From: Dehalococcoidia bacterium
GTDB lineage: Bacteria; Chloroflexota; Dehalococcoidia; Lucifugimonadales; UBA3495
Assembly (NCBI GenBank): GCA_963665735.1
Contig: OY762444.1
Location: 1,867,547 to 1,931,546 of the forward strand
Direction of reading: 5' to 3'
Length of the DNA stretch: 64,000 bases
The stretch's first letter is position 1; each line of letters begins with the position of its first letter. A program made the position numbers and the translations under genes. Below the pieces are notes generated by a model, which had not been told where the DNA came from, did not search any database, and saw only the letters and a program-made list of their open reading frames with translations. Below, piece after piece: positions 1-52,805 of the stretch.

Positions 1-1574
1 AACTGCACACTGTAGCCGGTGATGGCCGGCTTGCCGGTCATGTTCGGGACCGTCCAGGACAGGTCAACGGAGCCTTTGGGATTTGACGGGGTGAGGGCAA
101 GGGTGAGGACCGGCTTCGCCGGCGGTTCGTTCACGTCGGTGACGTTGATGGTGATGGTAACATCAGCGGATTCACCGCCATTGCCGTCGCTGGCCATCGT
201 CGTCACGGTGTACGATGTCTTGGTCTCGTAGTCCAGTTCAGTCCCGCTCTTGACCGTAATCTGGCCGGTGCTCGAGTTGATTTCGAACTTGTTGCCGTCG
301 GTCCCGCCCAAGGGGATGTAGGTCAGGGTATCGCCGTCGGGGTCGGTGGCGGTTATCGGAGCGCCGACGTTGGTTCCCCCAGACGAGTGCTCGGCGATGC
401 TGCGGGTGGCGGTGGCTGCCGGGAAGGTGGGGGCCCGGTTGCCCTGGGCGGTGGTTTGCGATGCCTCGTCGGACCAGGCGCTCCAGCCTTCGACGTTGTA
501 CGACCGCGCTTTGATGTAGTAAGTGGTGTTGGCGGTCAGTGAGTCAATGGTTGCGGTGGTGGCAGTAATCTCCTTGTGGGGAATGTTCCAGGAGTTTTTG
601 TCATGCGTCCAAATCACCTGGTACTTGTCGGCGCTGCCGTTGCCGGGCGTCAGGGTAACGTCTATCTTGCTGCTGGGGGTAGTGGAGTTTTGAGACGCGC
701 TGATGGTGGGCTTTCCGGGGGCGGTTACGTCGGTCACGTTGATGGTGACGGTGGCCGTTACGTTGTCAAAGCCGTCATCCGCGTTCACATAGACGCTGTA
801 CGAAGTCTTGGTTTCGTAGTCCAGGGTCGTGCCGCTCTTCAAGGAAATCTGTTGGTTGCTGCTGTTGAAGTCGAACTTGCCGGCGTCGGTTCCGCCGAAG
901 GTGTAGGTCAGGGTGTCGCCGTCGGGGTCGGAGGCGCTCACCGGGGAGCCGACGTTGGTTCCCGCCGGCGAGTTCTCGGCGATGCTGCGGGTCTGACTGG
1001 CGCCGCCGGAGAAACTGGGAGACTGGTTGACGCCGCCAAACGGAGAGACGGATTCGGGGGCCGGGTCAGCGAAGGGGGATTGGAAGGCGGCCGGGCCGGA
1101 GATGGCCGCGCTGATGAAGGGGGAGGGGAGAGCGTCGAGGACTTCCAGGGTGGCGACGTAGGCAGTTCCGGCTGCGTAGTCCAGGGCCGGGCTGTCATTG
1201 GTGGGAACCCCATTGTTGTTGACGTTGATGTCGCCGGGGTTGGCGTCGCCGTCGTCACCGAACGGGCTGACCGCCGGGGCCAGGGTCAGGTTGCCGGCGG
1301 CGTCGGAGGCGGCCAACGGAATGTGGAAAACCGACACGCCGTTGAAGCCGATTTCGGAAACCAGGTTCGGGGCGGCATCGCCGTCGTCGCTGAGCAGGCC
1401 GGCGGCCGGCGCCAGAATTGGGTTGTCCTCGGCGTGGAGGGTTCCGGCGGCGTGGAAGGCGGCCAAGGCCAGGAACCCGGCCAGGACGGCCACGACCAGG
1501 AACGCGGGCATCCGGGAGTAGCTGCCAAGACCCGAAACAACGGTTTTGCGGTTAAAGACTTGTTTCTTGTACAT
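1..1574 (-). CDS. Surface protein with alternating cadherin-like and fibronectin-III-like repeats and an N-terminal hydrophobic anchor; 3' end runs off the window
   Basis: Absent from the ORF track because it is open at the window edge. My translation of the minus strand from ATG 1574..1572 gives MYKKQVFNRKTVVSGLGSYSRMPAFLVVAVLAGFLALAAF. It then shows two copies of SIAE(N/H)S..GTNVG.P..A.DPDGDTLTY..GGTD..KF......Q.I..KSGT.LDYETKTSY (cadherin-repeat pattern), separated by an FN3-like module (KYQVIWTHD...YYIKARSYNVEGWSAWS). The + ORF 576..1610 is its GC-rich shadow. Confidence 0.85.
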   Translation of the reverse strand, partial: MYKKQVFNRKTVVSGLGSYSRMPAFLVVAVLAGFLALAAFHAAGTLHAEDNPILAPAAGLLSDDGDAAPNLVSEIGFNGVSVFHIPLAASDAAGNLTLAPAVSPFGDDGDANPGDINVNNNGVPTNDSPALDYAAGTAYVATLEVLDALPSPFISAAISGPAAFQSPFADPAPESVSPFGGVNQSPSFSGGASQTRSIAENSPAGTNVGSPVSASDPDGDTLTYTFGGTDAGKFDFNSSNQQISLKSGTTLDYETKTSYSVYVNADDGFDNVTATVTINVTDVTAPGKPTISASQNSTTPSSKIDVTLTPGNGSADKYQVIWTHDKNSWNIPHKEITATTATIDSLTANTTYYIKARSYNVEGWSAWSDEASQTTAQGNRAPTFPAATATRSIAEHSSGGTNVGAPITATDPDGDTLTYIPLGGTDGNKFEINSSTGQITVKSGTELDYETKTSYTVTTMASDGNGGESADVTITINVTDVNEPPAKPVLTLALTPSNPKGSVDLSWTVPNMTGKPAITGYSVQ

Positions 1575-1985
1575 TTGGCTTATCATCCTTCCACTGGCAT
1601 AAGGGTTTAGTGGATAACGGTTCACGGGTGATATTATGCGCTCCAAAGATGGTTGTCAAGTATAAGATTTATTTGTCCTACAATCAGATAGTTAAACTTA
1701 TTAACCATTCAACATACAGCTTGGTAATCAATACAACCGTGAATGATTCACAGGTAATTGGCTGTTTTAACGCACAAATGGCCCGTAAAACAGTTCGGAT
1801 GATAAGCGTTTCCCGGTTCAACCGATTAACGGTTCAACGGCGCGTCGGCCCAAAATGCCAGGGCCAGAGCTTACCGAATCAACGAAATTGCCGGCCAATT
1901 TCCCCAATTGCCGGGAAAAAGGCCGGCAATCGCCGGGAAAAGCCGGCCAATTCCCGGCAATTCCGGGACATTCCCGGCCCGATGC

Positions 1986-5795: not shown

Positions 5796-6350
5796 TTACA
5801 CGGGCAGTTTCGGTTCGTCGCCGTCGGGGGTGTCTATCTGGAAGGAGTTGGCGTTGAAGGCCAGGGTGGTGTAGTAGCCCATCAGGGTGGTCAGTTCGGT
5901 CAGGCCCAGGGCGCCGAACTGGTCCAGGGCGGCCTGGAATGTCTCATCGCTGACCTTGTGGTCGCGGAAAAGCTCGGTGACGTAGTTGACCACGGTTTGC
6001 TCGTCGTCGGGCAGTTGGGGCAGCGGCCGGCCGTCGCGCAGGTTGTCAATGAACTCGTCGCTGATGCCCTGCTCCCGGGAGCGGGCGGCGTGGGCGTGCC
6101 AGATATACTGGCAGTCCATGGTGCGGGCGGTCAGAATCATGGTCAATTCCTGCAACTTCTTGGGCAGGGAGGACTCGTCCCGCAGGTAGTTGACCAGGCT
6201 GTTGGCCCGGCGGCGCATTTCGGGGCTGTTAATCATCACCGAACCGGGGCCGGCGGTGACAACGCCGCCGGTGTTGGCGGTTTCGTGGTCAAAGGCATCG
6301 CGCAGGTTTTCGGGAACCATGTCTCGCGTGACGTCGGGGGTTCGGGGCAT
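5796..6350 (-). CDS. Carboxymuconolactone decarboxylase (AhpD-like) family protein
   Basis: ORF 5796..6521 trimmed to ATG 6350 (MPRTPDVTRDMVPENLRDAFDH...). The LTARTMDCQYIWHAHAA core is typical of the CMD family. Confidence 0.75.
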   Translation of the reverse strand: MPRTPDVTRDMVPENLRDAFDHETANTGGVVTAGPGSVMINSPEMRRRANSLVNYLRDESSLPKKLQELTMILTARTMDCQYIWHAHAARSREQGISDEFIDNLRDGRPLPQLPDDEQTVVNYVTELFRDHKVSDETFQAALDQFGALGLTELTTLMGYYTTLAFNANSFQIDTPDGDEPKLPV

Positions 6351-6514
6351 GGGTCGCCTCCTTATAGTAATGTTTTCCAGGACGGGGTTTGTCCGGCGGG
6401 ACAAGGGCATGATAGCCGGCGGGGTGGATGGTGGCAACCGTGACCGGCGGCGGTATTCATTGGGGAGATTCCATAATAGAATAGGCGGGCGATTTTTTGA
6501 CCGGGAGAAGGGCG

Positions 6515-7472
6515 ATGGCAACGGTGAATACGGTTCTGGGGCCGGTGGATACGGCGGACTTCGGGTTTACTTTGAGCCATGAGCACGTTGGAACCAATGC
6601 GGCGGGGCTGCGCCATACCTACCCCGAATTTATTGACCGGGAAGGCATTGTCGAGCAGTCCACGGCGGCGATGAAAGAGGTTTACGACGAGGCGGGGGTG
6701 CGGACGATTATAGACGTAAGCACGTTTGACCTGGGGCGCGACGTGGAGATGATACGGCGGGTGGCGGAAGGCAGCGGGATGCAGGTTGTGGCGGCCACCG
6801 GCAATCACCTGGCCGTGCCTCGGCCATTCGGCGACGTTTCGCCGGACGTAATCGCCGAGTTGTATGTCCGGGAAATTGAAGAGGGCATCGAAGGCACCGG
6901 CGTCAAGGCCGGCGTAATCAAGGTTGCCAGCGACCGGGGCGGCATTACCCCCCCCGCAAGAAGTGGTGTTGCGGGCGGCGGCCCGGACGCACAAGGCCAC
7001 CGGCGTCCCCATTTCCACCCATACCTGGTCGCCGGAGCGCATCGGGGAGCAGCAGGTAGCCATCCTGGAAGATGAAGGGGTTGACCTGAACCGGGTTTAC
7101 ATCGGCCACAGCAACGACGATACCGACCTGGACTACCTGCTGGGCCTGCTCAACAAAGGCGTCTGGCTGGGGCTGGACCGTTACCCCGGCGGGCTGGTGC
7201 CCGGCACGCCCGATTGGGAGCAGCGGACGGAGGTTGCCAAGCGGTTGATGGACGCCGGTTTTACCCATCGGATAATGCTTTCCCACGACTATTCGGTGCC
7301 CAAGGCGCGCCACGGGGCCGAAGTGCAGGAACAGCGGCGGCGGGCCAACCCGGACGGCTACAACTTCATTCCCCGCTACGTGCTGCCCCGGTTGAAAGAG
7401 TTTGGGGTCTCGGATAAAGACATCCGGCAGATAACGGTGGACAACCCCCGCCGTTTCTTTGAGGGGGCTTAG
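6515..7472 (+). pseudogene. Phosphotriesterase-family (PTE / lactonase-like) amidohydrolase with its reading frame broken in a C8 run
   Basis: ORFs 6497..7075 and 6924..7472 are the two halves of one PTE-family protein. The halves read MATVNTVLGPVDTADFGFTLSHEHV...GVIKVASDRGGITPP | QEVVLRAAARTHKATGVPISTHTW...LSHDY. The frames join if the C run 6948..6955 holds 7 rather than 8 C. Confidence 0.85.
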
Positions 7473-19587: not shown

Positions 19588-20739
19588 TTATTTATCGGTT
19601 CCGGCGACTTGGGTTTCGGCGACAAGTCGCAAGGACAGGAACGCCTCTTTCAACGGTTGGTTTACTGCGCTATCCGGTTCCTCCAGAACCAACGCTTGGT
19701 ATGCGTCGGGGAATTGGGTCCTGACACGGTGAAAAAGGTGCAGGAAATGACGCAAGAAACCAATGCAGTCCAGCACAACAACCTCCACCCCGCCTAGAGA
19801 TTCGTACAAGGAACTGGCATATTCCTTAACCTCTGGGCTAATAGTGTCAGTCGTGATGAAAATGTAGTTGTCGATTCTGGGAGTGCGAGAAGCAATCTTT
19901 GTGACGGCCCTGTCAATGTCGTCGATAGTTACCTGCTTTAACTTCATTTCGTAGCTGGTAACTACTTCTTTGTCATTAGTCAGCACTATCTCCAGGTCTC
20001 CAAGAGCACCCGTTTGCTCGTCCGCCGCGTTGTGCGCTAAAAGCGGTTTTGCGGTCTCGCCGATCTTATCTTTCGCAACAGTGTAGGCGGCAGCCACCAC
20101 CAACACAGGCAGACGACTGGCGCTTGGGCACTGCAAGTGTTGTACGATTAAGGTAATGATTCCTTCCGAAGACAATGACAAACCACCCTTGCTTCCCTTT
20201 ATATCAGCAAGCAGAGTATCCATCCTTTGCCTTTTTTCATCCCGAACAACGCAAAGGAACCTGATGGTGTCTGACAGAACTGCCTCCGCCGTAGCACGGC
20301 CCGAAGCCACGTCGTTAAGAACTTGAAGCGTTTCGCGGTAAAGCTGAGTCGGCCGTCCGACGATATTGGTGCCTACTGTTAATGGGTAGTCTATGTTTCT
20401 AAGGGCAGGCGTGAGAAATGCGGTTGTTTGATTGCAGGGGAGACGTTTACTGTTGATGAATTGAGTTATGTATTGTTCATCATGCGTTCTGCCAGAAAAA
20501 TATGAGTCACTCTCAATTTCCGTATAGGGTTCACGAGGGTCAACATCAGGTCGGTGAATTTTGCCGAGCATACAAGCCATTAAAAGACGTACACACGCCC
20601 GGTTCGTGAGGCATCGTGCCACATATTCAATCCTGGCCAATATCTCCTCATCTTGCAAAATTGGAGCGTCCAAGGCTTGCTCGGCCTTGGCATACAACCG
20701 TTCCAGGATTTCCGTTGGGCTTTCGGTCATCGCTGCCAC
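19588..20739 (-). CDS. Putative Type II restriction endonuclease (PD-(D/E)xK)
   Basis: 383-aa ORF overlapping the upstream Dam-like methylase gene by 13 nt. It shows the candidate catalytic core GALGDLEIVLTNDKEVVTSYEMKLK (D...E-x-K). It sits in an AT-rich island. Specificity is unknown. Confidence 0.55.
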   Translation of the reverse strand: MAAMTESPTEILERLYAKAEQALDAPILQDEEILARIEYVARCLTNRACVRLLMACMLGKIHRPDVDPREPYTEIESDSYFSGRTHDEQYITQFINSKRLPCNQTTAFLTPALRNIDYPLTVGTNIVGRPTQLYRETLQVLNDVASGRATAEAVLSDTIRFLCVVRDEKRQRMDTLLADIKGSKGGLSLSSEGIITLIVQHLQCPSASRLPVLVVAAAYTVAKDKIGETAKPLLAHNAADEQTGALGDLEIVLTNDKEVVTSYEMKLKQVTIDDIDRAVTKIASRTPRIDNYIFITTDTISPEVKEYASSLYESLGGVEVVVLDCIGFLRHFLHLFHRVRTQFPDAYQALVLEEPDSAVNQPLKEAFLSLRLVAETQVAGTDK

Positions 20740-21716
20740 CCGATTTCTGCTTGCTCGTTGCTATCAAGAACAACTTCCGTCGTGGGATAATTGGTCCAGA
20801 GCACCTCTGAGCGTTTGCCTTTGGTGGCATGGTTCGTTCTAGGCGGTAGAACGTGCTTAAACCAACGGTCTTGCGGATAGAGAAGGTCGAGCAATTCACA
20901 ATCATAGTTGGAAAATGCGACTAGGCCCTTGGCTGCATTCAGGGTATAGGCAAGTTCCTGATGTTGTAGATTCGTCATCTCGAACTCGTAAGCCTTCGAG
21001 TCACTACGGGTTTCGTGGACGTAGGGCGGATCACAGTAGAACAGCGTATTGGGGGAATCGTACAGTTGGATGACATCAATAGCCGGGCGATTTTCAATCT
21101 GAACGCGCAACAACCGTTCTGCGATGTCGGGCAGGGAGTCCATGCTGCCTAGCCATCGGCTCACGACCCCACTCATTCCCGCCCTTGTGGTATTTATGCA
21201 ATTGGCCCATCGTCCTACTGACGCAGTTTGGGCTAAGCCAGTTCGCACTTGCCGCGCCCTCACATAAAACCTTCGCGCCCGTTCTACTGCCGGAATGTTT
21301 GCGTCAAGCAAACACGCCATCACGAATTCTTCCCGAGAGAAAGGGGTTAGCGCAATCAGTCTTGCTAACTCATCAGGTTCGTCACGAAGAACTCGAAAGA
21401 AATTGCAAACTTCGCCGTCCAAGTCGTTGTACGTCTCAACAGGAGATGGGCAACGATTCAACAACACGGCAGCAGACCCGGCGAACGGTTCGCAATAATG
21501 ATGGCACGTGGGCAACAACGGCAACAGCCAATCAAGGTGGGAGAACTTCCCTCCGTACCACCCAAATGGAATGAGTTTCTTTCTCCGGGTCAGCTTGGAA
21601 ATGGGTGGTGGTACATTCTTTCGGATTTTGCCATTCTTTACCGGCTTTTCGTTATTCATATCGCGGCTGACCGTCCCAAATCTGTGAAGGGATGATGATA
21701 GAAAAAGACCGCCCAT
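20727..21716 (-). CDS. DNA adenine methyltransferase, Dam/D12-class
   Basis: WYGGKFSHLDWLLPLLPTCHHYCEPFAGSAAVLLN is the motif I region and LFYCDPPYVHETR is the DPPY motif. The start is uncertain: ATG 21716, or ATG 21659 giving MNNEKP. Confidence 0.8.
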   Translation of the reverse strand: MGGLFLSSSLHRFGTVSRDMNNEKPVKNGKIRKNVPPPISKLTRRKKLIPFGWYGGKFSHLDWLLPLLPTCHHYCEPFAGSAAVLLNRCPSPVETYNDLDGEVCNFFRVLRDEPDELARLIALTPFSREEFVMACLLDANIPAVERARRFYVRARQVRTGLAQTASVGRWANCINTTRAGMSGVVSRWLGSMDSLPDIAERLLRVQIENRPAIDVIQLYDSPNTLFYCDPPYVHETRSDSKAYEFEMTNLQHQELAYTLNAAKGLVAFSNYDCELLDLLYPQDRWFKHVLPPRTNHATKGKRSEVLWTNYPTTEVVLDSNEQAEIGWQR

Positions 21717-33702: not shown

Positions 33703-35058
33703 ATGGCCGGAAATTACCTGGACTTGCTGGCGGAGTTCGTTGTCAACACCAGACTGGAATACCTGTCGCCCGGCGCGGTCAACGCCGCCAGGAACGTGGT
33801 GCTGGACACGGTGGGGGCAATCATCGCCGGCAGCCGCCAGCCGGAAAACGCCAAGTTTGCCCAACTGGTCAAGACCATGAGCGGGCCGGGGCGGGCGACG
33901 CTGGTGGGCCATCGGGGTACGGTGCAGCCGGTGTTTGCCGCCCTGGTCAACGCCACGGCGGGGGTGGCCCTGGAAATGGACGAAGGCAGCCGGCTGGGGG
34001 GCGGCCATCCGTCCATCCACGTCACCCCCGGCGCGCTGGCGGTGGCGGAGGAATTGGGCCGCAACGGTAAGGAAACGCTGGAAAGCGTCATCGTCGGGTA
34101 TGAGGTCATTTCGCGGATTGGAACCGGCACCACGCCCCGGCGGGAAGTCCACTCCCACGGCACTTGGGGAACCATCGGCGCGGCGGCGGCAACGGCCCGG
34201 CTGCTGGGTTTTGACGCCGGGCAGACGCGGCAGGCCATGAACCTGGCAATGTCCATGAGTCCGGCCAACACCTGGACGCCGTGCCTGGAAGGGGCAACGG
34301 TGCGGAACCTGTACCCCGGTAGGTCGGGTTTCCAGGGAATCATGGCCGCCCATTTGGGGCAGTGCGGGTTTACCGCCGTCGAGGACGGGCCGGCGGACTT
34401 GTACGATGGGCTGCTGGGTCAGGGTTTTGACCCGGCGGCGGTGGTTGACGGTCTGGGGGACGGGGGCAAGCTCCGCATTGAGCAAAACTATTTCAAGCTG
34501 CACGCCTGCTGTCTCTACAACCATCCGGCGTTGGACGCCGCCATGATTCTGCAAAAGCGGGAGGGCTTTGCGGCGTCGGATGTGGAGCGGGTGGAAGTGA
34601 CGGCGCCGCCCATCGCGCAGATAATGGCCGACCCGCAGCCGGAGAATATGCTGTCGGCCAAGTTTTCCATACCCTACGCAGTGGCGGCGGCCATCGTCAC
34701 CGGAGGCGCCGACGTTACGGCGTTTTACCCGGAACGGCTGGCGGACGCCGATACCGCGAGCCTGGCCCGGCGGGTGAAAGTGCTGGCCGATGAGGAAATG
34801 GACCTGCGGCGGTACGACTATCCGGCGGCGCGGGTCAAGGTGTTCCTGACGGGCAACCGGGTCTTGGAGGAAAGCGTCACGGCCCATTACGGCGATTCGG
34901 CCAACCCGGTGACGCGGGAAGACCTGGTTGGCAAGTTCAATTTCCTGGCCGTTGACACGCTGGGAGAGGCGGGAGCGGCCAAGGTGGTTGACACGGTTGC
35001 CAGGCTGGAAGAGTTGCCGGACATTGGGGAGTTGACGGAATTGCTGCGGGGCGGGTAG
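33703..35058 (+). CDS. MmgE/PrpD family protein (paralogue 2 of 3)
   Basis: MAGNYLDLLAEFVVNTRLEYLSPGAVNAARNVVLDTVGAIIAGS. Length 451 aa. Confidence 0.85.
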   Translation: MAGNYLDLLAEFVVNTRLEYLSPGAVNAARNVVLDTVGAIIAGSRQPENAKFAQLVKTMSGPGRATLVGHRGTVQPVFAALVNATAGVALEMDEGSRLGGGHPSIHVTPGALAVAEELGRNGKETLESVIVGYEVISRIGTGTTPRREVHSHGTWGTIGAAAATARLLGFDAGQTRQAMNLAMSMSPANTWTPCLEGATVRNLYPGRSGFQGIMAAHLGQCGFTAVEDGPADLYDGLLGQGFDPAAVVDGLGDGGKLRIEQNYFKLHACCLYNHPALDAAMILQKREGFAASDVERVEVTAPPIAQIMADPQPENMLSAKFSIPYAVAAAIVTGGADVTAFYPERLADADTASLARRVKVLADEEMDLRRYDYPAARVKVFLTGNRVLEESVTAHYGDSANPVTREDLVGKFNFLAVDTLGEAGAAKVVDTVARLEELPDIGELTELLRGG

Positions 35059-36473: not shown

Positions 36474-37666
36474 TGGCGGGAATGCTGGCGGGTATCCGCG
36501 TTCTGGAATTGGGCGACGGGGTTGCCGCTTCTTTTTGCGGCAAGCTGCTGGCCGACTATGGGGCCGACGTTATCAAGATTGAGCCGCCCGATACCGGCCA
36601 TGACACCCGGCGGGTTGGGCCTTTCGTTGGCGATGACCCCCACCCGGAAAAGAGCATCCCCTTTCTGTACCTGAACACCAACAAGCGCGCCGTAACGCTG
36701 GGTCTGGATACCGCCACCGGCCAAGGTCTGCTGCGCCGCTTGGCGGCAACGGCGGACGTGGTGGCGGAAGATTTTCCCGCCGGCCGGTTGGAAGAACTGG
36801 GGGCGGGTTATGCAGTCCTGTCCGGGGTCAATCCCGGCCTGGTGGTCACGTCCATAACCTCCTTTGGGCAAGATGGGCCTTACCGCGATTTGCAGGCCAC
36901 CGACATCGTTAACTTCGCCATGAGCGGGCTGATGTACCACTCCGGGGACTCGGATAAGGAACCGCTGCGGAATGTTCTGAACCAGTCCTATTACGTGGCC
37001 GGGGTCAACGCCGCCGTTGCGACAATGGCAGCCCTGTTCCAAAGGCTGACCACCGGACAGGGGCAGCGGGTGGACGTTTCGGCTACCGAATGTTTGGCGT
37101 CCCACCTGGTGCAGGCCGCGCCGTATTACAGCTTTATGGGGGCCATCAAGGGCCGCCGCCCGATGCGCGGGGCCGGGTTTGAAGAGCTGATGCCGGCCAG
37201 GGACGGCTACGTTATCCCGTCGGTGCAGGGTTCCCAACCCTGGTCAACGGTGGCGGAACTGGTGGGAGTGGCCGAGTTGCAGGACGAAAGATTCGCCACC
37301 GGCACGGGGCGCATCGAACACGGCGAGGAATTGAATCAACTGCTGCTGCGGGGTTTGGCCCAATGGGACCGGAAAGAGCTTTTCCAGGCGTCGGGAGAGC
37401 GGCGGCTGGTCTTTGGCATGGCTCAGGACGCCGGCGATTTGGCGGAATGTCCCCACCTAGCGGCGCGGGAGTTCTTTGACCGGGTGGCGCATCCGGTAGC
37501 GGGAACGGCGGACTACCCGGGCATGGGGCCGATTGTGTCGGGAATGGGCCGGACGGAACGGCGGCCGGCGCCGATGCTGGGGCAGCACAACGCCGAAATT
37601 TATGGCGAAGAACTGGGTTGCTCATCCCTGGAACTGGCGCAACTGCGGGCGGTTGGGGCGATATGA
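36473..37666 (+). CDS. Family III CoA-transferase (CaiB/BaiF), copy 1
   Basis: ORF trimmed to ATG 36473 (TAATG overlap with the hydratase stop). The product reads MAGMLAGIRVLELGDGVAASFCGKLLADYGADVIKIEPP. Confidence 0.85.
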   Translation: MAGMLAGIRVLELGDGVAASFCGKLLADYGADVIKIEPPDTGHDTRRVGPFVGDDPHPEKSIPFLYLNTNKRAVTLGLDTATGQGLLRRLAATADVVAEDFPAGRLEELGAGYAVLSGVNPGLVVTSITSFGQDGPYRDLQATDIVNFAMSGLMYHSGDSDKEPLRNVLNQSYYVAGVNAAVATMAALFQRLTTGQGQRVDVSATECLASHLVQAAPYYSFMGAIKGRRPMRGAGFEELMPARDGYVIPSVQGSQPWSTVAELVGVAELQDERFATGTGRIEHGEELNQLLLRGLAQWDRKELFQASGERRLVFGMAQDAGDLAECPHLAAREFFDRVAHPVAGTADYPGMGPIVSGMGRTERRPAPMLGQHNAEIYGEELGCSSLELAQLRAVGAI

Positions 37667-39045
37667 GCCGCGCGCCGCTGGAAGGAATCCGGGTGGTGGA
37701 CTTGAGCCGGGTATTCGCTATGCCCTACTGCGGGGCGCATCTGGCCGACCTGGGCGCGGAGGTTATCAAGGTTGAAACCCACCACAGCGCGTTTGTTGAC
37801 ACCACCCGCACACTGAACGGCCCCTATCCCGACAACGAACCGGGGCATAACTTCTGGGAACGAGGCGGCACTTTCCAGACGTTGAACCGGGGCAAGCGGT
37901 CGGTGACGCTGGACTTGCGCTCGGAAGAGGCGCTAGGCGTCCTGAAAGACCTGGTGAGCGTCAGCGACGTGGTGCTGGAAAACTTCACGCCGCGGGTGAT
38001 GCGCCGTTTCGGTCTGGATTACGCCCGGTTGCGGGCATACCGTCCTGACCTGATTATGGTTTCCAACACCGGCTACGGCCACAGCGGGCCGTGGCAAGAC
38101 TTCGGGGCGATGGCTACCGCCCTGGAACCCACCCACGGCACCGGGGCTTTCATGGGCTACCTGGAACCCGAAGGCGCGGGGTGTCTTGGGCCGGGGACGG
38201 TTCCCAACAAAATCGCCAATTCCTACACGGATTTTCTGGCTAGCTGGACGGCGCAATTGGCGGTATTGGTCTGTCTTTTCCACCGGGCCAACACCGGGCA
38301 AGGGGCCTGGATTGACTTGGCGATGTACCAGGTGGGAGTCTCTTACATGGGGGAGGGACTGCTGGACTACGCCTTTAACGGGCGGCGCGCCCGGCGGTTG
38401 GGCAACCGCCATGAGTACCTGTCGCCCCACGGCTGCTACCCCTGCCGCGGCGATGACGAATGGGCGGTAATCGCGGCGCGGGATGACGCTGAATGGAAGG
38501 CTGTCTGCCGGGTCATGGGACGCCCGGAGTTGGCCGAAGACGTGCGGTTCGCCGACCCCATCGCCCGTCATGCCCACCAGGACGAACTGGACGATATAAT
38601 CGCCGGTTGGACAAGAAAGTTGGGCCAGTACGAAGTCATGGAACTGTTGCAACGAGAGGGGGTTCCCGCCGGGCCGGCCCTGGACGGCAAGGGAATCTGG
38701 AACAATCCCCACCTGCGGAGCCGGGGCTATTTCGAGACAGCGCAGCACCCGCCGGAAACCGGGTTGGGGCAGCGGGATTACACCAGCCGGGGTTGGCGGT
38801 TGAGCGACAGCAAGGTGGGCATCGGCAGACCCGGCCCAATGCTGGGACAGGACAACCACCATGTTTTGTCGGAAATCCTGGGGTTGGAGGCGGCCCGGAT
38901 TGATGAGTTAAAGCAAGCCGACGCCATTGGCGATACGCTGAAGGGTATGGCAGTGCCGCGGGCGGTGCCGATGGAACGTCAGGTGGAATTGGGCTGGACG
39001 GTAAGGTATGACCCGGATTATCGGGGGCCGGGAGATGGTGGTTAG
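37663..39045 (+). CDS. Family III CoA-transferase, copy 2
   Basis: ORF trimmed to ATG 37663 (ATGA overlap with copy 1). The product reads MSRAPLEGIRVVDLSRVFAMPYCGAHLADLGAEVIKVE. Confidence 0.85.
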   Translation: MSRAPLEGIRVVDLSRVFAMPYCGAHLADLGAEVIKVETHHSAFVDTTRTLNGPYPDNEPGHNFWERGGTFQTLNRGKRSVTLDLRSEEALGVLKDLVSVSDVVLENFTPRVMRRFGLDYARLRAYRPDLIMVSNTGYGHSGPWQDFGAMATALEPTHGTGAFMGYLEPEGAGCLGPGTVPNKIANSYTDFLASWTAQLAVLVCLFHRANTGQGAWIDLAMYQVGVSYMGEGLLDYAFNGRRARRLGNRHEYLSPHGCYPCRGDDEWAVIAARDDAEWKAVCRVMGRPELAEDVRFADPIARHAHQDELDDIIAGWTRKLGQYEVMELLQREGVPAGPALDGKGIWNNPHLRSRGYFETAQHPPETGLGQRDYTSRGWRLSDSKVGIGRPGPMLGQDNHHVLSEILGLEAARIDELKQADAIGDTLKGMAVPRAVPMERQVELGWTVRYDPDYRGPGDGG

Positions 39046-39265
39046 TGGATAGTGGTCTGTCAACTGAGGATTGATGGATAAAGCGGGAGTCCGTTCGTGG
39101 TGAGCTTGTCGAACCATGAACGGGCGGCCCTTCGACAAGCTCAGGGCGAACGGGAAAATCCACCATCATTTCAAGGTTGTTCGCCTGTCAGTGGCTAGTG
39201 GCCGGGGGCCAGTGGTTAGTTTCTGCAATCTGCGCCCCACTATCCACTAATCACTGGCCACTAAT
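39036..39265. repeat. Intercistronic mosaic: heptamer (STRR-like) repeats, a family 6 element (39088..39155) and inverted heptamer arms (39187..39220 / 39236..39265)
   Basis: The heptamer register reads GGTGGTT AGTGGAT AGTGGTC ... CCCACTA TCCACTA ATCACTG GCCACTA. Family 6 is AGTCCGTTCGTGGTGAGCTTGTCGAACC...TTCGACAAGCTCAGGGCGAACGGGA, with a 12-bp internal stem. Confidence 0.8.
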
Positions 39266-39280
39266 TGAAGGAGGTATCGC

Positions 39281-40540
39281 ATGACGGAGGCGGGAATTTT
39301 GGACGGGGTGACGGTGTTGACCCTGGAGCAGGTTCACGCCCTGCCCTGGGGCACCGGCTTTCTGGCAGACCTGGGGGCGCGGGTCGTCCGGGTGGAAAGC
39401 GTTGACCACCTGCAAGACCGCAAGGCCGGCCCCTTTCCCGGCGGCGCTCCGGGCGAAGAGTGGTGGAACGAAGGCGGCAGCCTGGTCTATTACGGCACCC
39501 GCAACAAGCAAAGCCTGTGCATGGACGTTACCAGTCCCAAAGGCAAAGAGGTCTTTCTGAAACTGGCGGCCAATGCGGACATCGTGACCGACAACTTCCG
39601 GCCCGGCACCATGCAGCGGTTCGGATTTGACCACGAAAGCCTGTCGGTGGTGAATCCCCGGATTATCAGCCTGAGCAGCACGGCCTACGGGTACACCGGC
39701 CCCTGGCGGCGGGCGGGTTCCCGCGCCCGCACGGTGGACGCCGCTTGCGGGCTGTCCTACCTGACCGGCTACGAAGGCGGCCCGTCCTACCGGGCCAGCA
39801 ACAACTACATGGACCACTCCGTCGGCAACAACGTGGCCTATGCCCTGCTGCTGGCCCTGTACCAGCGCAGCAAGACGGGCCGGGGGATGCGGATTGACCT
39901 GACCATGCAGGAAACCGGCGTCTCAGCCATCGGCCCGGCGGTCTTGGAGGCCCAGCGGGGAATAACCCGGCAGAGGATGGGCTGCGCTCACTGGTGGAAG
40001 TCGCCGCACAATGTTTATCCCTGCAAGGACGCTGACCGCTGGGTTGTCATTGTGGTGTCCGGCGACGGGGAATGGGAACGGCTGAAAGAGGCGATGGGGA
40101 GTCCGGCCTGGGCCAACGATGCGAAGTTGGATTCGGTGAGCGGGCGTTGGCGGCATCGTCACGAAATTGACGAAAATCTGGCCGAATGGACGGCGCAGTG
40201 GGACGACCTGGAGTTGGGCCGCTACCTGCAAGGGCATGGTGTCAGCGCCGGGCCGGCCATGACCGCCGAGCAGTTGGTCAACGACGACCACCTGCAACAG
40301 CGGGGCTACCTGTGGGAGTTTGACAACCCCAACGCGCCGGAGGTGGGGCCGCGGGTTTACGCCGGTCGTCCCTTCCGCACCCCGGAAATACCCATGTCCA
40401 TCACCAAGGCGGCGGCCTTGGGCCAGGACAACGAGGCGGCGTTGAAAGAGATTGGCGGCCTTTCGGCGGAGGAAATAGCGTCTTTGGCTGAGGAAGGGGT
40501 CATCGCCGCCGCGCCCCGTCCCGACGAAAGGCGGCCCTGA
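39281..40540 (+). CDS. Family III CoA-transferase, copy 3
   Basis: MTEAGILDGVTVLTLEQVHALPWGTGFLADLGARVVRVES, with GAAGGAGG upstream. Confidence 0.85.
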   Translation: MTEAGILDGVTVLTLEQVHALPWGTGFLADLGARVVRVESVDHLQDRKAGPFPGGAPGEEWWNEGGSLVYYGTRNKQSLCMDVTSPKGKEVFLKLAANADIVTDNFRPGTMQRFGFDHESLSVVNPRIISLSSTAYGYTGPWRRAGSRARTVDAACGLSYLTGYEGGPSYRASNNYMDHSVGNNVAYALLLALYQRSKTGRGMRIDLTMQETGVSAIGPAVLEAQRGITRQRMGCAHWWKSPHNVYPCKDADRWVVIVVSGDGEWERLKEAMGSPAWANDAKLDSVSGRWRHRHEIDENLAEWTAQWDDLELGRYLQGHGVSAGPAMTAEQLVNDDHLQQRGYLWEFDNPNAPEVGPRVYAGRPFRTPEIPMSITKAAALGQDNEAALKEIGGLSAEEIASLAEEGVIAAAPRPDERRP

Positions 40541-40677
40541 GTCAGTGGACAGTGGTTAGTGGTTAGCGCGGGGCAACCGGCGAGTAGGGGCGCACGGCCG
40601 TGCGCCCCTACCACTAGCCACTAACTGCTATTCACTGACCAATAACCACTGGCAACTGACCACTAAGAGAGGAACTT
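40541..40677. repeat. Intercistronic 137-nt composite palindrome: heptamer arms around the family-4 28-nt palindrome (40584..40611)
   Basis: Left arm GTCAGTG GACAGTG GTTAGTG GTTAG. Centre GTAGGGGCGCACGGCCGTGCGCCCCTAC. Right arm CACTAG CCACTAA CTGCTAT TCACTGA CCAATAA CCACTGG CAACTGA CCACTAA. Confidence 0.85.
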
Positions 40678-41886
40678 ATGGCAGGAATACTTGACGGCAT
40701 CAGAACGCTGGAATTGACCAACCAACCGTCGGGGGCGTTCTGCGCCAAGCTGGTGGCCGACCAGGGGGCCGACACGCTCAAGGTTGAGCCGCCGGGCTGG
40801 GGCGACCAGTTGCGCCACGAACCGCCCTTCATCGGCGGCGAGCCGCACCCGGACAAGGGAACGTCTTTCCTGGCCTTCAACACCAACAAACGGGGCATCA
40901 CCCTGGACTTGGAGCAGACCGCCGGGCGGGAAATCCTGCTGCGGCTGGCCGAGTCCGCCGACGTGGTTATCGAGAGCTTTCCGCCGGGATACCTGGACGC
41001 GCTGGGGTTGGGGTATGAGGCGCTGCAAGGGCGGAATCCGGGGCTGATACTGGTATCCATAACCTACTTCGGGCAGGAGGGCCCCTACGCCGACTACCGG
41101 GGCAATGACCTGGTGGCGCAGGCGATGGGCGGGTTCCTGTACGCGGTGACGGGTTCCAGCAACCGCCCGCCGATGGGAACGGCGTTGCAGCAGATGGAAA
41201 TAACGGCGGCGCGCAACGGGGCCATCGCCATCACCGCCGCTTTGATGCGTCGGGAACAATCCGGCGGTGGAACGCACATTGACCTGTCGGTGATGGAGGC
41301 GGCGGTGAGCACGCCCAGCGGGTTGATTCACCCCTTCACCTTCACCGGGCGCAGTCCCCACCGGGGCGGCAGCGACGGCAACGTGATGGACGGGATGCAC
41401 CTGCCCACCAGGGACGGCGAGGTTACGTTGACCACCGCCGGCACCGGGGGGCGTCCGATGGAGGCGTGGGCCGAGTTTCTGGATGAGCCGGGCTTGCTGG
41501 ACGCCAAGTTTGCCAGCCGCCAGGGACGGATGGAGCATTGGGAGGAACTGCACGGGCTGGTGGCGCCCAAGCTGGCGGAGTGGAACAACCTGGACTTGAT
41601 GGCGGAGACGATGGCCCGCGGCCTGGTGGTGGGGCTGGTGCAAAGCCCGGAGCAGGTGGTGGAATCGCCCCACCTGGAGGAGCGGGGGTTTTTCGTGGAG
41701 TTGGAACACCCGGAGGTTGGGACGCTGAAATACGCCGGGGCCGGGTTTTTCATGGACGGGGAAAACACCATGGAAACGGGCCGGGCGGCGCCCCGGCTGG
41801 GGGAACACAACGTCGAAATTCTTAACGGGGAGTTGGGAATTTCCCTGGAAGAGTTGGGCGTCTTGCGGGCGGCGCGGGTGATTTAG
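40678..41886 (+). CDS. Family III CoA-transferase, copy 4
   Basis: MAGILDGIRTLELTNQPSGAFCAKLVADQGADTLKVEPPGWGD. Confidence 0.85.
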   Translation: MAGILDGIRTLELTNQPSGAFCAKLVADQGADTLKVEPPGWGDQLRHEPPFIGGEPHPDKGTSFLAFNTNKRGITLDLEQTAGREILLRLAESADVVIESFPPGYLDALGLGYEALQGRNPGLILVSITYFGQEGPYADYRGNDLVAQAMGGFLYAVTGSSNRPPMGTALQQMEITAARNGAIAITAALMRREQSGGGTHIDLSVMEAAVSTPSGLIHPFTFTGRSPHRGGSDGNVMDGMHLPTRDGEVTLTTAGTGGRPMEAWAEFLDEPGLLDAKFASRQGRMEHWEELHGLVAPKLAEWNNLDLMAETMARGLVVGLVQSPEQVVESPHLEERGFFVELEHPEVGTLKYAGAGFFMDGENTMETGRAAPRLGEHNVEILNGELGISLEELGVLRAARVI

Positions 41887-42565: not shown

Positions 42566-43921
42566 CTAGCCACTATGTTCGTCCCCGTCCTCCCTAACGT
42601 CTATGCGCCCGGTGACGGCGGCGGAAATCAGGGCGGTTCTAAACTCTCTCAGGAGTTCGACGGCTTTGCGCGATGTAGCGACCAGGGAGTCAATCTTGGC
42701 GGTTTCCCGGTCGAGGTAGGCGGCAATGGCGGTTTGTTCGGCCAGGGGCGGGAAAGGCATGAAACTGCAAGCTACTTCATTGGGACTAACGCGGGGCATC
42801 CTGGCGCCATAGGTCAGGCTATCAATCCAACGGATGTACGGCTCGTTTAACAGGCTGTATGCCAAGTAGCTTTGTAAACACTCATCCCTCGGGCGCATCA
42901 CCAACACCTCGCTGGTGGCCGTGCCTTCGAAGTCGGTACGGACTACCTTGGCGAGGTATGGACGGAGCTTGCCGAACAAGACATCCCCCGGAGCGAAGGT
43001 GACAACCGCACTGTCCACCCGTTCCGGCTGGTCATCAAGCAGCAGTTTCCCTGTCCACGGTTCGATATTCTCAAGTCCGACGTATGTAGCATCTTCCGGT
43101 TTGTTGTCCAGTTTGCCGTTATGGAAGGGAGCCACATACTTCAGCCGGCGCACTTCCCAATGGGCGGGGATTTCCCCCAGCCACTCAACGCCGGAGTCTT
43201 TCATTGGCGCGTTGGAGTCCAGGCCCCGGGTAACGGCGTTGGTGATGAGGGCGGCGCGCATTTCCCGCAGCAGTTCGATGAGCCGCTCTTTCCGGGAGAC
43301 CAGGGCGTCAATCTTGGCGGTTTCCCGGTCAAGGAAGGCGGCAATGGCCTGTTGTTCGGGGAGGGGCGGGATTGGGTGTTTGAGGTTGGAAACAAACGAC
43401 TCGGGAATTCGTTTCTGACCGCCGGCGCCATACATTTCGGCTTCGCCCAGCTTGCGGAAATCGCCCGTCATGGTCATGTAAAAGGCGAATTGCTTATCTA
43501 GTTCCGGGCGGCATCTCAATACGTGGAGTTCGGTGGTGCCAAAGGCGATTCCATTGACAAGTTCGCCAGCCAGCGCCCCCTTGCCGTTCTCAAAGCAAGG
43601 GGTAATCTTGGCTACCACTACATCGCCATCCCTGAAATAGGTATATCCGTCCACCACATCGGAAAGTTCCTTGGTTAGCGACAGGTCCAAGCCACCGTAT
43701 TCGCCAACGGCTTCCATTGGCAAGAAAGAGACCTCTGTATCCGGGGCCAGCTTTCGCACTTCGGAGGCTTTGGGATTCAGGCTAGCGACATACTTCAGCC
43801 GCTTGACTTCCCAATGGGCCGGCACGTCGCCCAGCCACTCGACGCCGGAGGGCCGGTAGGCCGGGTAGGGTTGGTATTTTGCGGTTGGATTTGCCATGTA
43901 AGGATGCTTTAAGGTTCGCAT
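42566..43921 (-). CDS. hsdS: Type I restriction-modification specificity subunit (HsdS), orphan
   Basis: Two TRD halves, each followed by the conserved helical repeat: LPEQQAIAAFLDRETAKIDALVSRKERLIELLREMRAALITNAVTRGL and LAEQTAIAAYLDRETAKIDSLVATSRKAVELLREFRTALISAAVTGRIDV. The alternative start ATG 43897 (MANPTAKY) is possible. Confidence 0.85.
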   Translation of the reverse strand: MRTLKHPYMANPTAKYQPYPAYRPSGVEWLGDVPAHWEVKRLKYVASLNPKASEVRKLAPDTEVSFLPMEAVGEYGGLDLSLTKELSDVVDGYTYFRDGDVVVAKITPCFENGKGALAGELVNGIAFGTTELHVLRCRPELDKQFAFYMTMTGDFRKLGEAEMYGAGGQKRIPESFVSNLKHPIPPLPEQQAIAAFLDRETAKIDALVSRKERLIELLREMRAALITNAVTRGLDSNAPMKDSGVEWLGEIPAHWEVRRLKYVAPFHNGKLDNKPEDATYVGLENIEPWTGKLLLDDQPERVDSAVVTFAPGDVLFGKLRPYLAKVVRTDFEGTATSEVLVMRPRDECLQSYLAYSLLNEPYIRWIDSLTYGARMPRVSPNEVACSFMPFPPLAEQTAIAAYLDRETAKIDSLVATSRKAVELLREFRTALISAAVTGRIDVREDGDEHSG

Positions 43922-48567: not shown

Positions 48568-49266
48568 ATGTGCGGACGGTTTGACCTGAACGAACATCAA
48601 TTGAAGATAAACTTCGGCGTTGACCTGGGCGGGCTGTCCCTGCCGGATGACGGCCCTGCGGTCTTGCCGGCGTACAACATCGCGCCCACCAGCCGGGTGT
48701 TGACCATCCTGTCCGACGGGTACGGGAATCAGCCGCGGCTGATGCGGTGGGGGCTGGTGCCCCGGTGGTCGAAAGAGATTAACTCCCGGTACGCCATGAT
48801 TAACGCCAGGGACGACCGGATATTGACCACCAAATCGTATGCCGGCCCGTTCAGGAACCAGCGCTGCCTGATTCCGGCCAGCGGGTTCTACGAATGGAAA
48901 CGCGGCCCGAGACAAGCGCGGTGGCCGGTGCGGTTTACGCTGAAATCGGAGGATACCTTCGCCTTCGCGGGGATTTGGGAACGGGCGCGTCCCGGTGGGG
49001 AAGAGGTCTTGTCCTGCTCGATTATCACCACGGCGGCCAACCGGCTGGTAAGCACGATTCACGACCGGATGCCGGTGATTCTGGCCCCGGAGGATTACCG
49101 GCGCTGGATGGACCCGCGCAACGAAAACGTGGAAGACCTGCTGGAACTGCTGCGGCCCTACGACGCCGGGTTGATGAAGGGCTACCCGGTTTCCAACGAG
49201 GTCAACGACGCCAGGAACCAGGGGCCGCATCTGGTAGAGGCGGCGGGGCCGGAACTGATTTTCTAG
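48568..49266 (+). CDS. SOS-response-associated peptidase (SRAP/YedK-like abasic-site processing protein)
   Basis: It starts with MCGRF (catalytic Cys2) and shows CLIPASGFYEW and HDRMPVIL. Confidence 0.85.
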   Translation: MCGRFDLNEHQLKINFGVDLGGLSLPDDGPAVLPAYNIAPTSRVLTILSDGYGNQPRLMRWGLVPRWSKEINSRYAMINARDDRILTTKSYAGPFRNQRCLIPASGFYEWKRGPRQARWPVRFTLKSEDTFAFAGIWERARPGGEEVLSCSIITTAANRLVSTIHDRMPVILAPEDYRRWMDPRNENVEDLLELLRPYDAGLMKGYPVSNEVNDARNQGPHLVEAAGPELIF

Positions 49267-49281
49267 CCGAAGGAGCGATTT

Positions 49282-49881
49282 ATGACCACGCAAGAGCCGG
49301 TTAACGTCAAGGTCTGGTTTGACTACACTTGACCCTTCTGCTACGTGGGCCTGGTCAGGCTGGAACAGGTAGCGCGGGAAATTCCCATGACCATTGACCG
49401 GCGGCCTTTTTTGTTGCAGCCGGACAAGCCGCCGGAGGGAACGGAGCGGCCCATGCGGGAGGGGGAGACGGCGACGGAGCTTTCCGCCGCGTGGCAGGAA
49501 CGGGCCGGCGCGCTGGGCGTCACCATGCGCCGCCCATCATGGTCGCCCAACACCAAGCTGGTGCATGAGGCGACGCTTTTCGCCAAGGAACGGGGACGGG
49601 ATGGGGAATTTCACCACCGGGCGGCCCGGGAATACTGGGAGTCGGGGGCCGACCTGGGCGATGCTGCGGTGGTGGAAAGACTGGCCCGGGACTGCGGGTT
49701 GGACGCATCCGAACTGCGGGCTGCGTTGGATTCGGGGCGGTTCCGGCAGCAGGTGGTTGACGAAGACCAGGCGGCGCGGGGATTGGGAATCGGCGGCACG
49801 CCCACCTACCAGGTCAACGGGGGCGAACCGACTTTCGGCGACTTGAGCGCCGACGACCTGCGGGCGTTGATTGGGAAGTGA
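49282..49881 (+). CDS. DsbA/FrnE-like thiol:disulfide oxidoreductase with an in-frame TGA at the first redox position (candidate selenoprotein, U-P-F-C)
   Basis: ATG 49282 has GAAGGAG 6 nt upstream. The product MTTQEPVNVKVWFDYT-[TGA 49330..49332]-PFCYVGLVRLEQVARE... is in frame with ORF 49345..49881. The family motif is (W/F)xDxxCP(F/W)CY. Confidence 0.6.
49340..49373 (+). promoter_or_regulatory. SECIS-like hairpin downstream of the in-frame TGA
   Basis: Lower stem GCUAC/GUAGC (49340..49344 / 49369..49373). Upper stem GGCCU/AGGCU (49348..49352 / 49357..49361). Apical loop GGUC (49353..49356). Confidence 0.45.
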
Positions 49882-50040
49882 GGCGGGGGTTTACCCCCAC
49901 CCCAACCCTCCCCCTAGTAAGGGGAGGGAGTATCTTTTGGCCTGGCCCTCTTTCGGTGGAGGGAGTGTCTTTTGGCCCGGTATTTTCCCAAGGCGGGATG
50001 GATTTAAGATTGACGGCAAATGCAAGGGAGGAAAAACAAC

Positions 50041-50340
50041 GTGATTAGGCAACTGCGTATCTACACCATCAACAAGGGACACCTGGACGATTTCGTACAG
50101 GGCTGGCTGGCCGGGGTTTACCCGCTGCACTTGGAACAGGGCTACAAGATTGAGCGGGCGGGAACGGTGCCGGAGCGGAACGAATTTGTCTGGGAAGTGT
50201 CCTACGACGGGCCGGAGGACTGGGACGCCAAGCAAGAGGCGTATTATAGTTCCCCGGAGCGGCTGGCCCTGGACCCGGACCCGGCGCAGTGGATTGCCAA
50301 GCGGGATGTCTGGTTCGTCAACTCCGTCCTGCCGGAGTAG
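50041..50340 (+). CDS. NIPSNAP-like small alpha/beta-barrel protein
   Basis: ORF 50020..50340 trimmed to GTG 50041, which follows AAGGGAGG. The product reads VIRQLRIYTINKGHLDDFVQGW... Confidence 0.55.
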   Translation: MIRQLRIYTINKGHLDDFVQGWLAGVYPLHLEQGYKIERAGTVPERNEFVWEVSYDGPEDWDAKQEAYYSSPERLALDPDPAQWIAKRDVWFVNSVLPE

Positions 50341-51410: not shown

Positions 51411-52805
51411 TCAGTGGGTGAAGGTTATCGCGGCCATTTCCTCGGCGGTTATGGTCAGGTTGGGGATTAACTGCCGGACGTTGCCGAGGTTTTCCAGGTC
51501 GTTGACCGCCTCTATCACCGCCTCGGCGCGCTGGGGGCCGAGGACGGGGTTGAACAGATAGAGCGCCTTGGCGTTGACCGTCTCGGTGTCCATCGGGTTC
51601 TGCATGGTGCCGTAGGCGTGGGGGGTGAAGTGGGACAGGGTAGCGCCGTCGTTCAGGGTCACTTCCACCCGGCCGCTGCGGGGCGCCTCCGGGTCCATCA
51701 ACGCCGGGTCCGGGATGAGCTGCACCCGCTCTTTAACCGCCAGCACTGCCGGGTCCGACATCCGTTGGTACGAGTGGGTGGACTCGAAAGTAACCTCCCC
51801 GTCCACCAGGGCCATTGCAATCATGTGCTGGCAATTAACGTCGGGCATGGCCCGGTCGTTGACGATTCCCGCCCCGTCCTCGGGCAGCCGGACTTCGATG
51901 CGGGCGACGTTTTCCGGTGTCAGCCGATGCCCTTGGTGAATGGCGAAAAAGGCGTCCAGGGCCGCCTGGATGGGATACCCCACCGGATAAGGCTTGATGG
52001 CGGTTTCGGTGATGCAATACCGACTACCCAGGTCGGCAATCATCAACGCCGGTTCCGGGCCGGGGGAGTGGGCGTTTAGGACGTTGTGCTGTCCTTCCAG
52101 GGCGTCGGCCACGCCGGAAAACCCGGCCTGCACCATCAGGGCGGCGGTGACGCCGTTGCGCGCGCCCATCCCCGAAAAGTCGAAGGCTTTTTCCACGTGC
52201 TCCAGGTCCCGGGGCCAACTCCAGACGCCGGAAACTTGCTGGGCGGCGTAGGACAGCACGTAGCGCATCCCCGTTTCGTCCAGCCCGGCGATGGAGGCCG
52301 CCGCCGCCGCGCTGCCCATCGTGGAGCTGGTGCCTTCCGCGCTGCGGTGGTTGCCTCGCACCAGGTCAGGGCCAAGAGCCAGCAGGAACCGGCAGCAGAC
52401 ATCGTAGCCCAGGACGACGGCCCGCAGCAGTTCTTCCCCGCTGCTGCCCTCCCGCTCGGCCATTGCCAAAGCCGCCGGAACCACGGAACAACCGGGGTGA
52501 GACTTGGTGACCGGCTCGAAATCGTCGGTTTCGTCGGCGTGGCCGAACATCCCGTTGACCAGGGCGGCGTTGACGGCGTTGGTCTTGACGTTGGTGGTCA
52601 GTACCGAGGATTCGGGGATGCCGCCCTGCAATCCGGCGTACTTTATCGCCATTTCGCCGGCTTTCAACCGCCCGCCGGAAACGCAGGCCGCCAGCGAGTC
52701 CAGGATGCGGTGCCGGGCCGCCAGCGCAACGTCGGCCGGCAGGGGGCGTTGGCTTGCCCCGGCCATGTACCGGGCCAGGGTTGCGGTAATTCCGTTAGTC
52801 GTCAT
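51411..52805 (-). CDS. MmgE/PrpD family protein (paralogue 3 of 3)
   Basis: ORF trimmed to ATG 52805. The product reads MTTNGITATLARYMAGASQRPLPADVALAARHRILDSLAACVSG. Confidence 0.85.
   Translation of the reverse strand: MTTNGITATLARYMAGASQRPLPADVALAARHRILDSLAACVSGGRLKAGEMAIKYAGLQGGIPESSVLTTNVKTNAVNAALVNGMFGHADETDDFEPVTKSHPGCSVVPAALAMAEREGSSGEELLRAVVLGYDVCCRFLLALGPDLVRGNHRSAEGTSSTMGSAAAAASIAGLDETGMRYVLSYAAQQVSGVWSWPRDLEHVEKAFDFSGMGARNGVTAALMVQAGFSGVADALEGQHNVLNAHSPGPEPALMIADLGSRYCITETAIKPYPVGYPIQAALDAFFAIHQGHRLTPENVARIEVRLPEDGAGIVNDRAMPDVNCQHMIAMALVDGEVTFESTHSYQRMSDPAVLAVKERVQLIPDPALMDPEAPRSGRVEVTLNDGATLSHFTPHAYGTMQNPMDTETVNAKALYLFNPVLGPQRAEAVIEAVNDLENLGNVRQLIPNLTITAEEMAAITFTH

Follow-up and report, generated by a model that had tools for sequence, protein, structure and literature searches.

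Positions 49282-49881 of the 64-kb stretch of DNA analysed here (hereafter, the window) very probably constitute a selenocysteine (Sec)-recoded gene, hitherto mis-annotated, that encodes a DsbA/FrnE-like oxidoreductase of a known selenoprotein family. The TGA that interrupts this gene is conserved across the clade, with selection at the protein level on both of its sides and selection at the RNA level on the hairpin that follows it. The preliminary description of this DNA had proposed a recoded, rather than a truncated, gene, and this proposal is supported by the near-universal retention of the TGA in related species (79/80), by constraint on the protein sequence encoded upstream of it, and by the conservation of the hairpin.

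The coding sequence (49282..49881, +) comprises 199 codons, including Sec17, as defined by translation, a Pfam match and comparison with orthologues. It starts at ATG 49282, 6 nt downstream of the Shine-Dalgarno sequence GAAGGAG (49270..49276, +), which includes AAGGAG, and reads MTTQEPVNVKVWFDYT, then TGA (49330-49332), then PFCYVGLVRLEQ and onwards to the terminator TGA at 49879-49881 (+). Both the position of the ribosome-binding site and the shared frame of ATG 49282, the TGA and the listed open reading frame at 49345..49881 (178 aa, GTG start) had been noted previously, and were confirmed by direct reading and translation; the TGA is the sole interruption of the 199-codon frame. When codon 17 was set to Cys, the 199-residue product matched the Pfam DSBA family (PF01323) over residues 9-196 (E 1.8e-30; 106.6 bits, relative to a cut-off of 25.6), and the occurrence of an in-frame TGA within a full-length DSBA domain is beyond chance. 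Comparison with orthologues places this candidate Sec codon (49330..49332, +) at the first position of a U-P-F-C motif, the resolving Cys of which is encoded by TGC as codon 20 (49339..49341, +). Of the 43 genes called in the window, 10 terminate in TGA, as does the DsbA-like gene itself. Hence there has been no genome-wide reassignment of this codon, and its decoding must be local or context-dependent. No other credible TGA-interrupted gene was found in the window, the only instance being an antisense-shadow artefact at 15427.

The upstream SRAP gene ends at TAG 49264-49266, leaving a gap of only 15 nt, and it is therefore likely to be co-transcribed with the DsbA-like gene. Directly 3' of the stop codon of the latter are two similar terminator-like hairpins in tandem (49906-49938 and 49946-49973, +), the T-rich tails of which are nearly identical (GGGAGGG-AGTATCTTTTGG and GGAGGG-AGTGTCTTTTGG). 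The number of terminator-like sites found by a consensus scan did not exceed the shuffled expectation, and these hairpins are only suggestive of a transcript end. Further downstream, a 106-residue open reading frame (50020-50340, +) has no Pfam match and is 94, 82 and 82 % identical in the syntenic genomes L025, L015 and L001, respectively; the adjacent DsbA-like gene is less conserved in the same three genomes, at 79, 71 and 66 %.

Orthologues were sought by scanning one genome per species, which identified 80 loci with tblastn matches spanning residues 1-197 of 199. All were from Dehalococcoidia, Chloroflexota or SAR202 metagenome-assembled genomes, many of which are complete chromosomes. 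The codon in the Sec column was TGA in 79 of these 80 orthologues and TGT, encoding Cys, in the other (L010), and the resolving Cys was encoded by TGC or TGT in every case. The Sec forms are 48-98 % identical to one another, with a median of 57 %. Codon usage was then counted across the 80 TGA-bearing sequences, which are the window gene and 79 orthologues: the base 3' of the UGA was C in all 80, and the preceding codon was ACT in 76. Conserved blocks flank the TGA on both sides, with VW.DYT upstream and P.C(Y)(V/I)G downstream. Over the 16 codons 5' of the TGA, amino acids are kept while synonymous sites vary; conservation of the encoded residues is seen at codons 9-16 (V-T-V-W-x-D-Y-T), where Val9 and Val11 are each specified by four different codons. 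This combination of protein-level constraint with free synonymous change indicates that the 5' segment is translated. The alignment of Sec with Cys at the TGA column, which had been suggested as a check on recoding, was found both within the orthologue set (79 TGA relative to one TGT) and in the further Cys forms P0006, P0030 and P0031. This comparative evidence is regarded as decisive for the predicted recoding.

The same orthologues bear on the explanation that TGC or TGT in this genome was miscalled as TGA through an assembly or sequencing error. Such errors do seem to affect related data, as a contig of 3.84x coverage has CGA at the Sec codon and a frameshift further 3', and a frameshifted phosphotriesterase-family (PTE) gene within the window could represent another. 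However, 79 genomes, each assembled independently, have this same TGA, accompanied in the hairpin by the AGG codon specific to Sec forms, and both are also present in the window. The possibility of a misread base, raised when the gene was first described, is excluded by these independent assemblies, and the probability of an error is regarded as negligible.

Gene callers have instead treated the TGA as a genuine stop, such that the locus would be a pseudogene, or encode a truncated DsbA-like protein initiated at GTG 49345 or ATG 49387, without the first active-site residue. This is reflected in a database of 5.8 billion proteins, in which N-terminal truncation (71-89 % coverage) affects almost all of the nearest homologues. 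These begin at assorted points 3' of codon 17, with Met36 as the first residue of P0001 (164 aa), residue 58 as that of P0005, and codon 22 as the start of P0007, P0011 and P0020. The remoter homologues in this database are full-length, with CxxC or CxxS motifs. No NCBIfam model covers the window protein, for which the best hit scored 26 bits relative to a cut-off of 190, and this absence accounts for the persistence of the truncated annotations. The window does have a GTG 12 nt 3' of the TGA, but the strong Shine-Dalgarno sequence precedes ATG 49282, and not the downstream start candidates. Nor is there a conserved downstream start across the 80 TGA-bearing sequences, a pattern that had been put forward as grounds for rejecting recoding: codon 22 is GTC in 42, GTG in 28, GTA in two and specifies another residue in eight, such that most orthologues have a non-start codon (GTC or ATC) at this position, while Met36 is not conserved, being mostly Ile. 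Furthermore, alignment with FrnE indicates that a start after residue 17 would deprive the thioredoxin fold of both its nucleophile and its beta-strand 1; the 16 codons upstream of the TGA are under purifying selection at the protein level; and a nonsense mutation would not persist in 79 of 80 species that have diverged to 48-98 % identity. A genuine stop is consequently considered extremely improbable.

The putative SECIS-type hairpin (49340..49373, +) was defined by cross-species pairing, covariation and the bSECIS model. In the window sequence, the lower stem can form between GCUAC (49340-44) and GUAGC (49369-73), and the upper stem between GGCCU (49348-52) and AGGCU (49357-61), with a U.G pair (49346/49363) and an apical loop of GGUC (49353-56) that lies 20 nt after the UGA. 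These stems and this loop had been identified in the preliminary description, and the pairings were confirmed, but as evidence from a single sequence they are weaker than it had implied; what stands is that the hairpin is conserved and covaries across orthologues. The minimum free energy (MFE) of the 61-nt segment 49330-49390 was -20.5 kcal/mol, relative to -19.0 +/- 2.95 kcal/mol for dinucleotide shuffles (z = -0.50), and the MFE fold favours an alternative upper pairing (-14.1 kcal/mol, versus -11.0 kcal/mol for the described structure). The published bSECIS model, a test proposed at the outset, was applied through our own implementation of its pattern and constraints. The window hairpin passed with all four constraints (GGUC loop, 5-bp upper stem, 20-nt spacing and -18.9 kcal/mol), as did 79 of 81 sequences overall, although a version demanding that the MFE fold be the hairpin missed that of the window. 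The specificity of the model is low in this window of 62 % GC, with 266 of 600 random in-frame positions (44 %) passing, and 25 of 600 doing so in a stricter version; hence the weight of evidence falls on covariation and synonymous constraint. No relevant match to Rfam was found either in the whole window at the gathering threshold or in 49250-49450 at E <= 10, and, as no bacterial SECIS family was among the matches, this negative carries little information. Alone, the hairpin is no better than chance.

It is only through cross-species conservation and covariation that the predicted hairpin becomes convincing. Pairing was analysed from the TGA to +57 in 68 distinct sequences, in which the upper helix (columns 17-23 with 28-34) was 94.5 % paired, and the lower helix (columns 11-15 with 40-44) 81 % paired. 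Overall pairing was 89 %, and fell to 22-59 % when the 3' partners were displaced by 1-3 columns. Across the 68 sequences, covariation, uncorrected for phylogeny, was seen at two pairs: pair 18-33 is GC in 25, CG in 18 and unpaired in 25, and pair 21-30 is CG in 59, UA in six and UG in three. Both are at synonymous third positions, and RNAalifold independently recovered an upper stem of five pairs. Synonymous variation is correspondingly reduced, with a normalised entropy of 0.40 across codons 18-28, relative to 0.72 elsewhere (Mann-Whitney p 1.5e-4). Among the 80 TGA-bearing sequences, Leu24 is encoded by CTG in 79, the apical loop opens with GG in 78, and Arg26 is encoded by AGG in 73, AGA in six and CGG in one, while the other Arg columns of the gene are mostly CGN.

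The Cys forms both qualify and extend this result. In three of them, L010, L082 (equivalent to P0006) and L083 (equivalent to P0037), a GCC/GGC stem is found at the position of the SECIS, but with Arg encoded by CGG and a six-base loop. The ratio of AGR to CGG at Arg26 is 79 to 1 in Sec forms and 0 to 3 in Cys forms (Fisher p 4e-5, uncorrected for phylogeny). The stem is present in Cys forms because GGC-CTG-nnn-CGG-CTG, encoding Gly-Leu-x-Arg-Leu, is self-complementary, and part of the hairpin is therefore a by-product of the amino acid sequence. The wider family includes UxxC, CxxC and CxxS variants: P0006, P0030 and P0031 carry CP(F/H)C at the Sec column, while P0037 and P0044 carry CxxS. 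As L010 and P0006 nest among the Sec forms, at 70-80 % identity, they appear to be independent replacements of Sec by Cys. In a further variant, P0022 (L085 1001-1608), the Sec codon is replaced by CGA (Arg) and the preceding ACT by CCT, with the Sec-type hairpin and its AGG intact; a frameshift splits the gene towards its 3' end, on a contig with 3.84x coverage, and the CGA is probably an assembly error or very recent decay.

These patterns allow for a tentative account of origins, to which we would assign a rather low probability, in which a hairpin dictated by the coding sequence was exapted as the SECIS, with repeated flips between Sec and Cys. The GGC-CUG-nnn-CGG-CUN of Cys-form relatives already pairs GCC with GGC; a single synonymous change of CGG to AGG would then narrow the loop to four bases (GGNN), after which one change of TGY to TGA could yield a functional Sec site.

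Of the genes for the Sec machinery, selA, selB and selD were not identified by Pfam annotation of 40 genes in the window. ARAGORN likewise found no tRNA or tRNA-Sec in the 64 kb, nor in the flanks of 60 related loci. This absence from the window lends something to the alternative in which the UGA is read through without Sec, by a near-cognate Trp, Cys or Arg tRNA or by Cys inserted via the Sec machinery, with the hairpin acting as a generic stimulator. The invariance of UGA-C among TGA-bearing sequences fits the same explanation, UGA-C being the leakiest stop context in bacteria, as does the similar stem found in Cys forms. Yet this is the position of the redox nucleophile, a role that only Cys or Sec can fill, and Cys is the one replacement observed among orthologues; an inefficient process, yielding mostly inactive product with Trp or Arg, is unlikely to have been selected over TGC for so long. 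Moreover, the loop sequence and spacing of the hairpin match those of SECIS elements bound by SelB, and dozens of selenoproteins are encoded in related genomes that share this TGA gene (PMC13326102). In that resource, BSepDB, Dehalococcoidia bacterium UBA1141 has 49 selenoprotein genes and isolate 10f4566d has 46, placing both in the top ten bacteria, and both carry the TGA orthologue identified here (L073 and L062, respectively). The SelA and SelB COGs have also been found to be enriched in sponge-symbiont bins (PMC5649159). Read-through without Sec is judged very unlikely, and Sec insertion remains the preferred reading.

The gene content of the window, with three MmgE/PrpD genes, four family-III CoA-transferases, a luciferase-like monooxygenase and amidases, resembles that of the Dehalococcoidia/SAR202-type lineage. 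The CoA-transferase genes are consecutive (36482-41886, +) and the MmgE/PrpD paralogues dispersed (2273-3616, 33703-35058 and 51411-52805), and the expansion of both sets of paralogues is typical of SAR202-type Chloroflexota. The neighbours of the DsbA-like gene are common only to the three closest genomes, and offer no functional clue. Elsewhere in the window, a CMD-family protein (5796-6350, -) has a sub-threshold match to the NCBIfam 'YciW-related (seleno)protein' model (31 bits, relative to a cut-off of 310), but shows no sign of being a selenoprotein, its reading frame being uninterrupted and having a single Cys in the motif region. The PTE gene (6497-7472, +) is split by a frameshift into an N-terminal half, with the HxH motif 'FTLSHEHV', in the open reading frame at 6497..7075, and a C-terminal half (Pfam PTE positions 143-298 of 298) in another frame at 6924..7472; this is either a pseudogene or an assembly indel error. 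Restriction-modification functions are represented by a 1116-residue fusion of an N6-methylase with an Eco57I-type protein, with a C-terminal DUF433 (10327-13677, +), a D12-class adenine methyltransferase (20727-21716, -) and a type I specificity (HsdS-like) subunit (42566-43897, -). A partial gene with cadherin and fibronectin-III domains runs off the start of the window (1-1586, -), and its product is a probable surface or adhesion protein.

The best match of known structure to the DsbA-like protein is FrnE of Deinococcus radiodurans (5cnw/5cp1), a cytoplasmic DsbA-like disulfide isomerase (E 5e-18, residues 4-183). The W-x-D-x-x-C22-P-W-C25-Y-I-G of FrnE aligns with W-F-D-Y-T-[TGA]-P-F-C-Y-V-G in the window, which upholds the earlier placement of the TGA at the first redox Cys, corresponding to Cys22 of the FrnE CPWC motif. 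Overall identity is low, and FrnE has Cys where the window protein has TGA. The two also differ in length, as FrnE has 260 residues, including a C-terminal extension, whereas the window protein stops at 199, with the alignment reaching residue 201 of FrnE. The C-terminal extension of FrnE bears a second pair of Cys residues used for regeneration. This pair is absent from the 199-residue sequence of the window protein, which, lacking the extension, is better described as FrnE-like than as an orthologue of FrnE. No signal peptide is evident in the protein sequence, the N-terminus of which (MTTQEPVNVK) has no hydrophobic stretch, suggesting that the protein is cytoplasmic and similar to FrnE rather than to periplasmic DsbA. 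A periplasmic DsbA of the E. coli type was rejected as a counterpart on the same grounds, and because the best matches are cytoplasmic FrnE-type proteins.

All the sequence-level characteristics of the DsbA-like UxxC selenoprotein family were found in this gene. The family (COG2761), with its UxxC motif and 3' stem-loop, was described in 2005 from the Sargasso Sea metagenome (Zhang, Fomenko and Gladyshev; PMC1088965), and in 2006 it was identified in several genomes (PMC1794560). A 2026 review of the prokaryotic selenoproteome lists 'DsbA-like protein form 1, PF01323, UxxC' (PMC13188914). The premise of the preliminary description, that Sec is documented in place of the redox Cys of DsbA-like proteins, is thereby borne out by both the original report and this review (PMC1088965, PMC13188914). 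Like members of this family, the gene has the PF01323 domain and a UxxC motif in which Sec stands for the first redox Cys; in both cases Cys homologues are widespread, and the UGA is closely followed by a stem-loop whose small apical loop contains G. The likeness to the published AACY01178397 and NIP15863.1 is one of shared domain, motif and stem-loop rather than of direct sequence alignment, with orthology unproven. Earlier surveys identified a handful of Sec occurrences among DsbA-like proteins, in Deltaproteobacteria and Clostridia; unlike these, the Sec form is near-universal here, being found in 79 of 80 species of a deep Dehalococcoidia/SAR202-type clade. In the literature, no paper was found that joined 'FrnE-like' with 'selenocysteine'. 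The SECIS of E. coli fdhF (NC_000913.3), which has been defined by experiment, has the same GGUC apical loop, in a hairpin within the coding region directly 3' of the UGA. This loop occupies +22..25 in fdhF and +24..27 in the window, which is 2 nt further from the UGA; the stem sequences are unrelated, and no equivalent of the bulged U is evident in the window hairpin.

The mechanism, including the insertion of Sec, the binding of SelB and the substrate of the enzyme, is inferred from the established bacterial pathway. When the UGA at 49330-32 is in the ribosomal A site, the hairpin at 49340-73 would offer its GGUC loop, 20 nt downstream, to SelB-GTP-Sec-tRNA(Sec), and SelB, competing with release factor 2, would bring Sec to the codon. 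Sec insertion is probably aided by the C that invariably follows the UGA, giving the weak termination context UGA-C, and by the ACT codon conserved on its 5' side. Translation would then proceed as far as TGA 49879-81, the true terminator, where such a hairpin is lacking. The predicted product is a 199-residue cytoplasmic thiol:disulfide oxidoreductase (DsbA-like/FrnE, COG2761, PF01323), with Sec for the N-terminal nucleophilic Cys in U17-P-F-C20. By analogy with D. radiodurans FrnE, its likely role is the reduction or isomerisation of cytoplasmic disulfides, for which Sec would provide a lower pKa and higher nucleophilicity than Cys.

Recognition of this gene leaves the understanding of selenocysteine recoding itself unchanged, but would correct its annotation, as it is currently called as an N-terminally truncated "DsbA family protein" of 164-178 residues without an active site. 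Of the protein clusters closest to it in the 5.8-billion-protein database, numbering approximately 25, most carry the same truncation error. The alignment of 80 species also enables RNA-level selection on a bacterial SECIS to be separated from selection at the protein level. Were exaptation of a coding-imposed hairpin true, it would account both for the fixation of Sec across a deep Dehalococcoidia/SAR202-type clade and for the recurrent reversions from Sec to Cys within it (L010 and P0006), providing a worked example of the ease with which a bacterial Sec codon may be gained and lost. A well-supported selenoprotein is also added to the Dehalococcoidia/SAR202-type lineage, which is emerging as unusually rich in such proteins.
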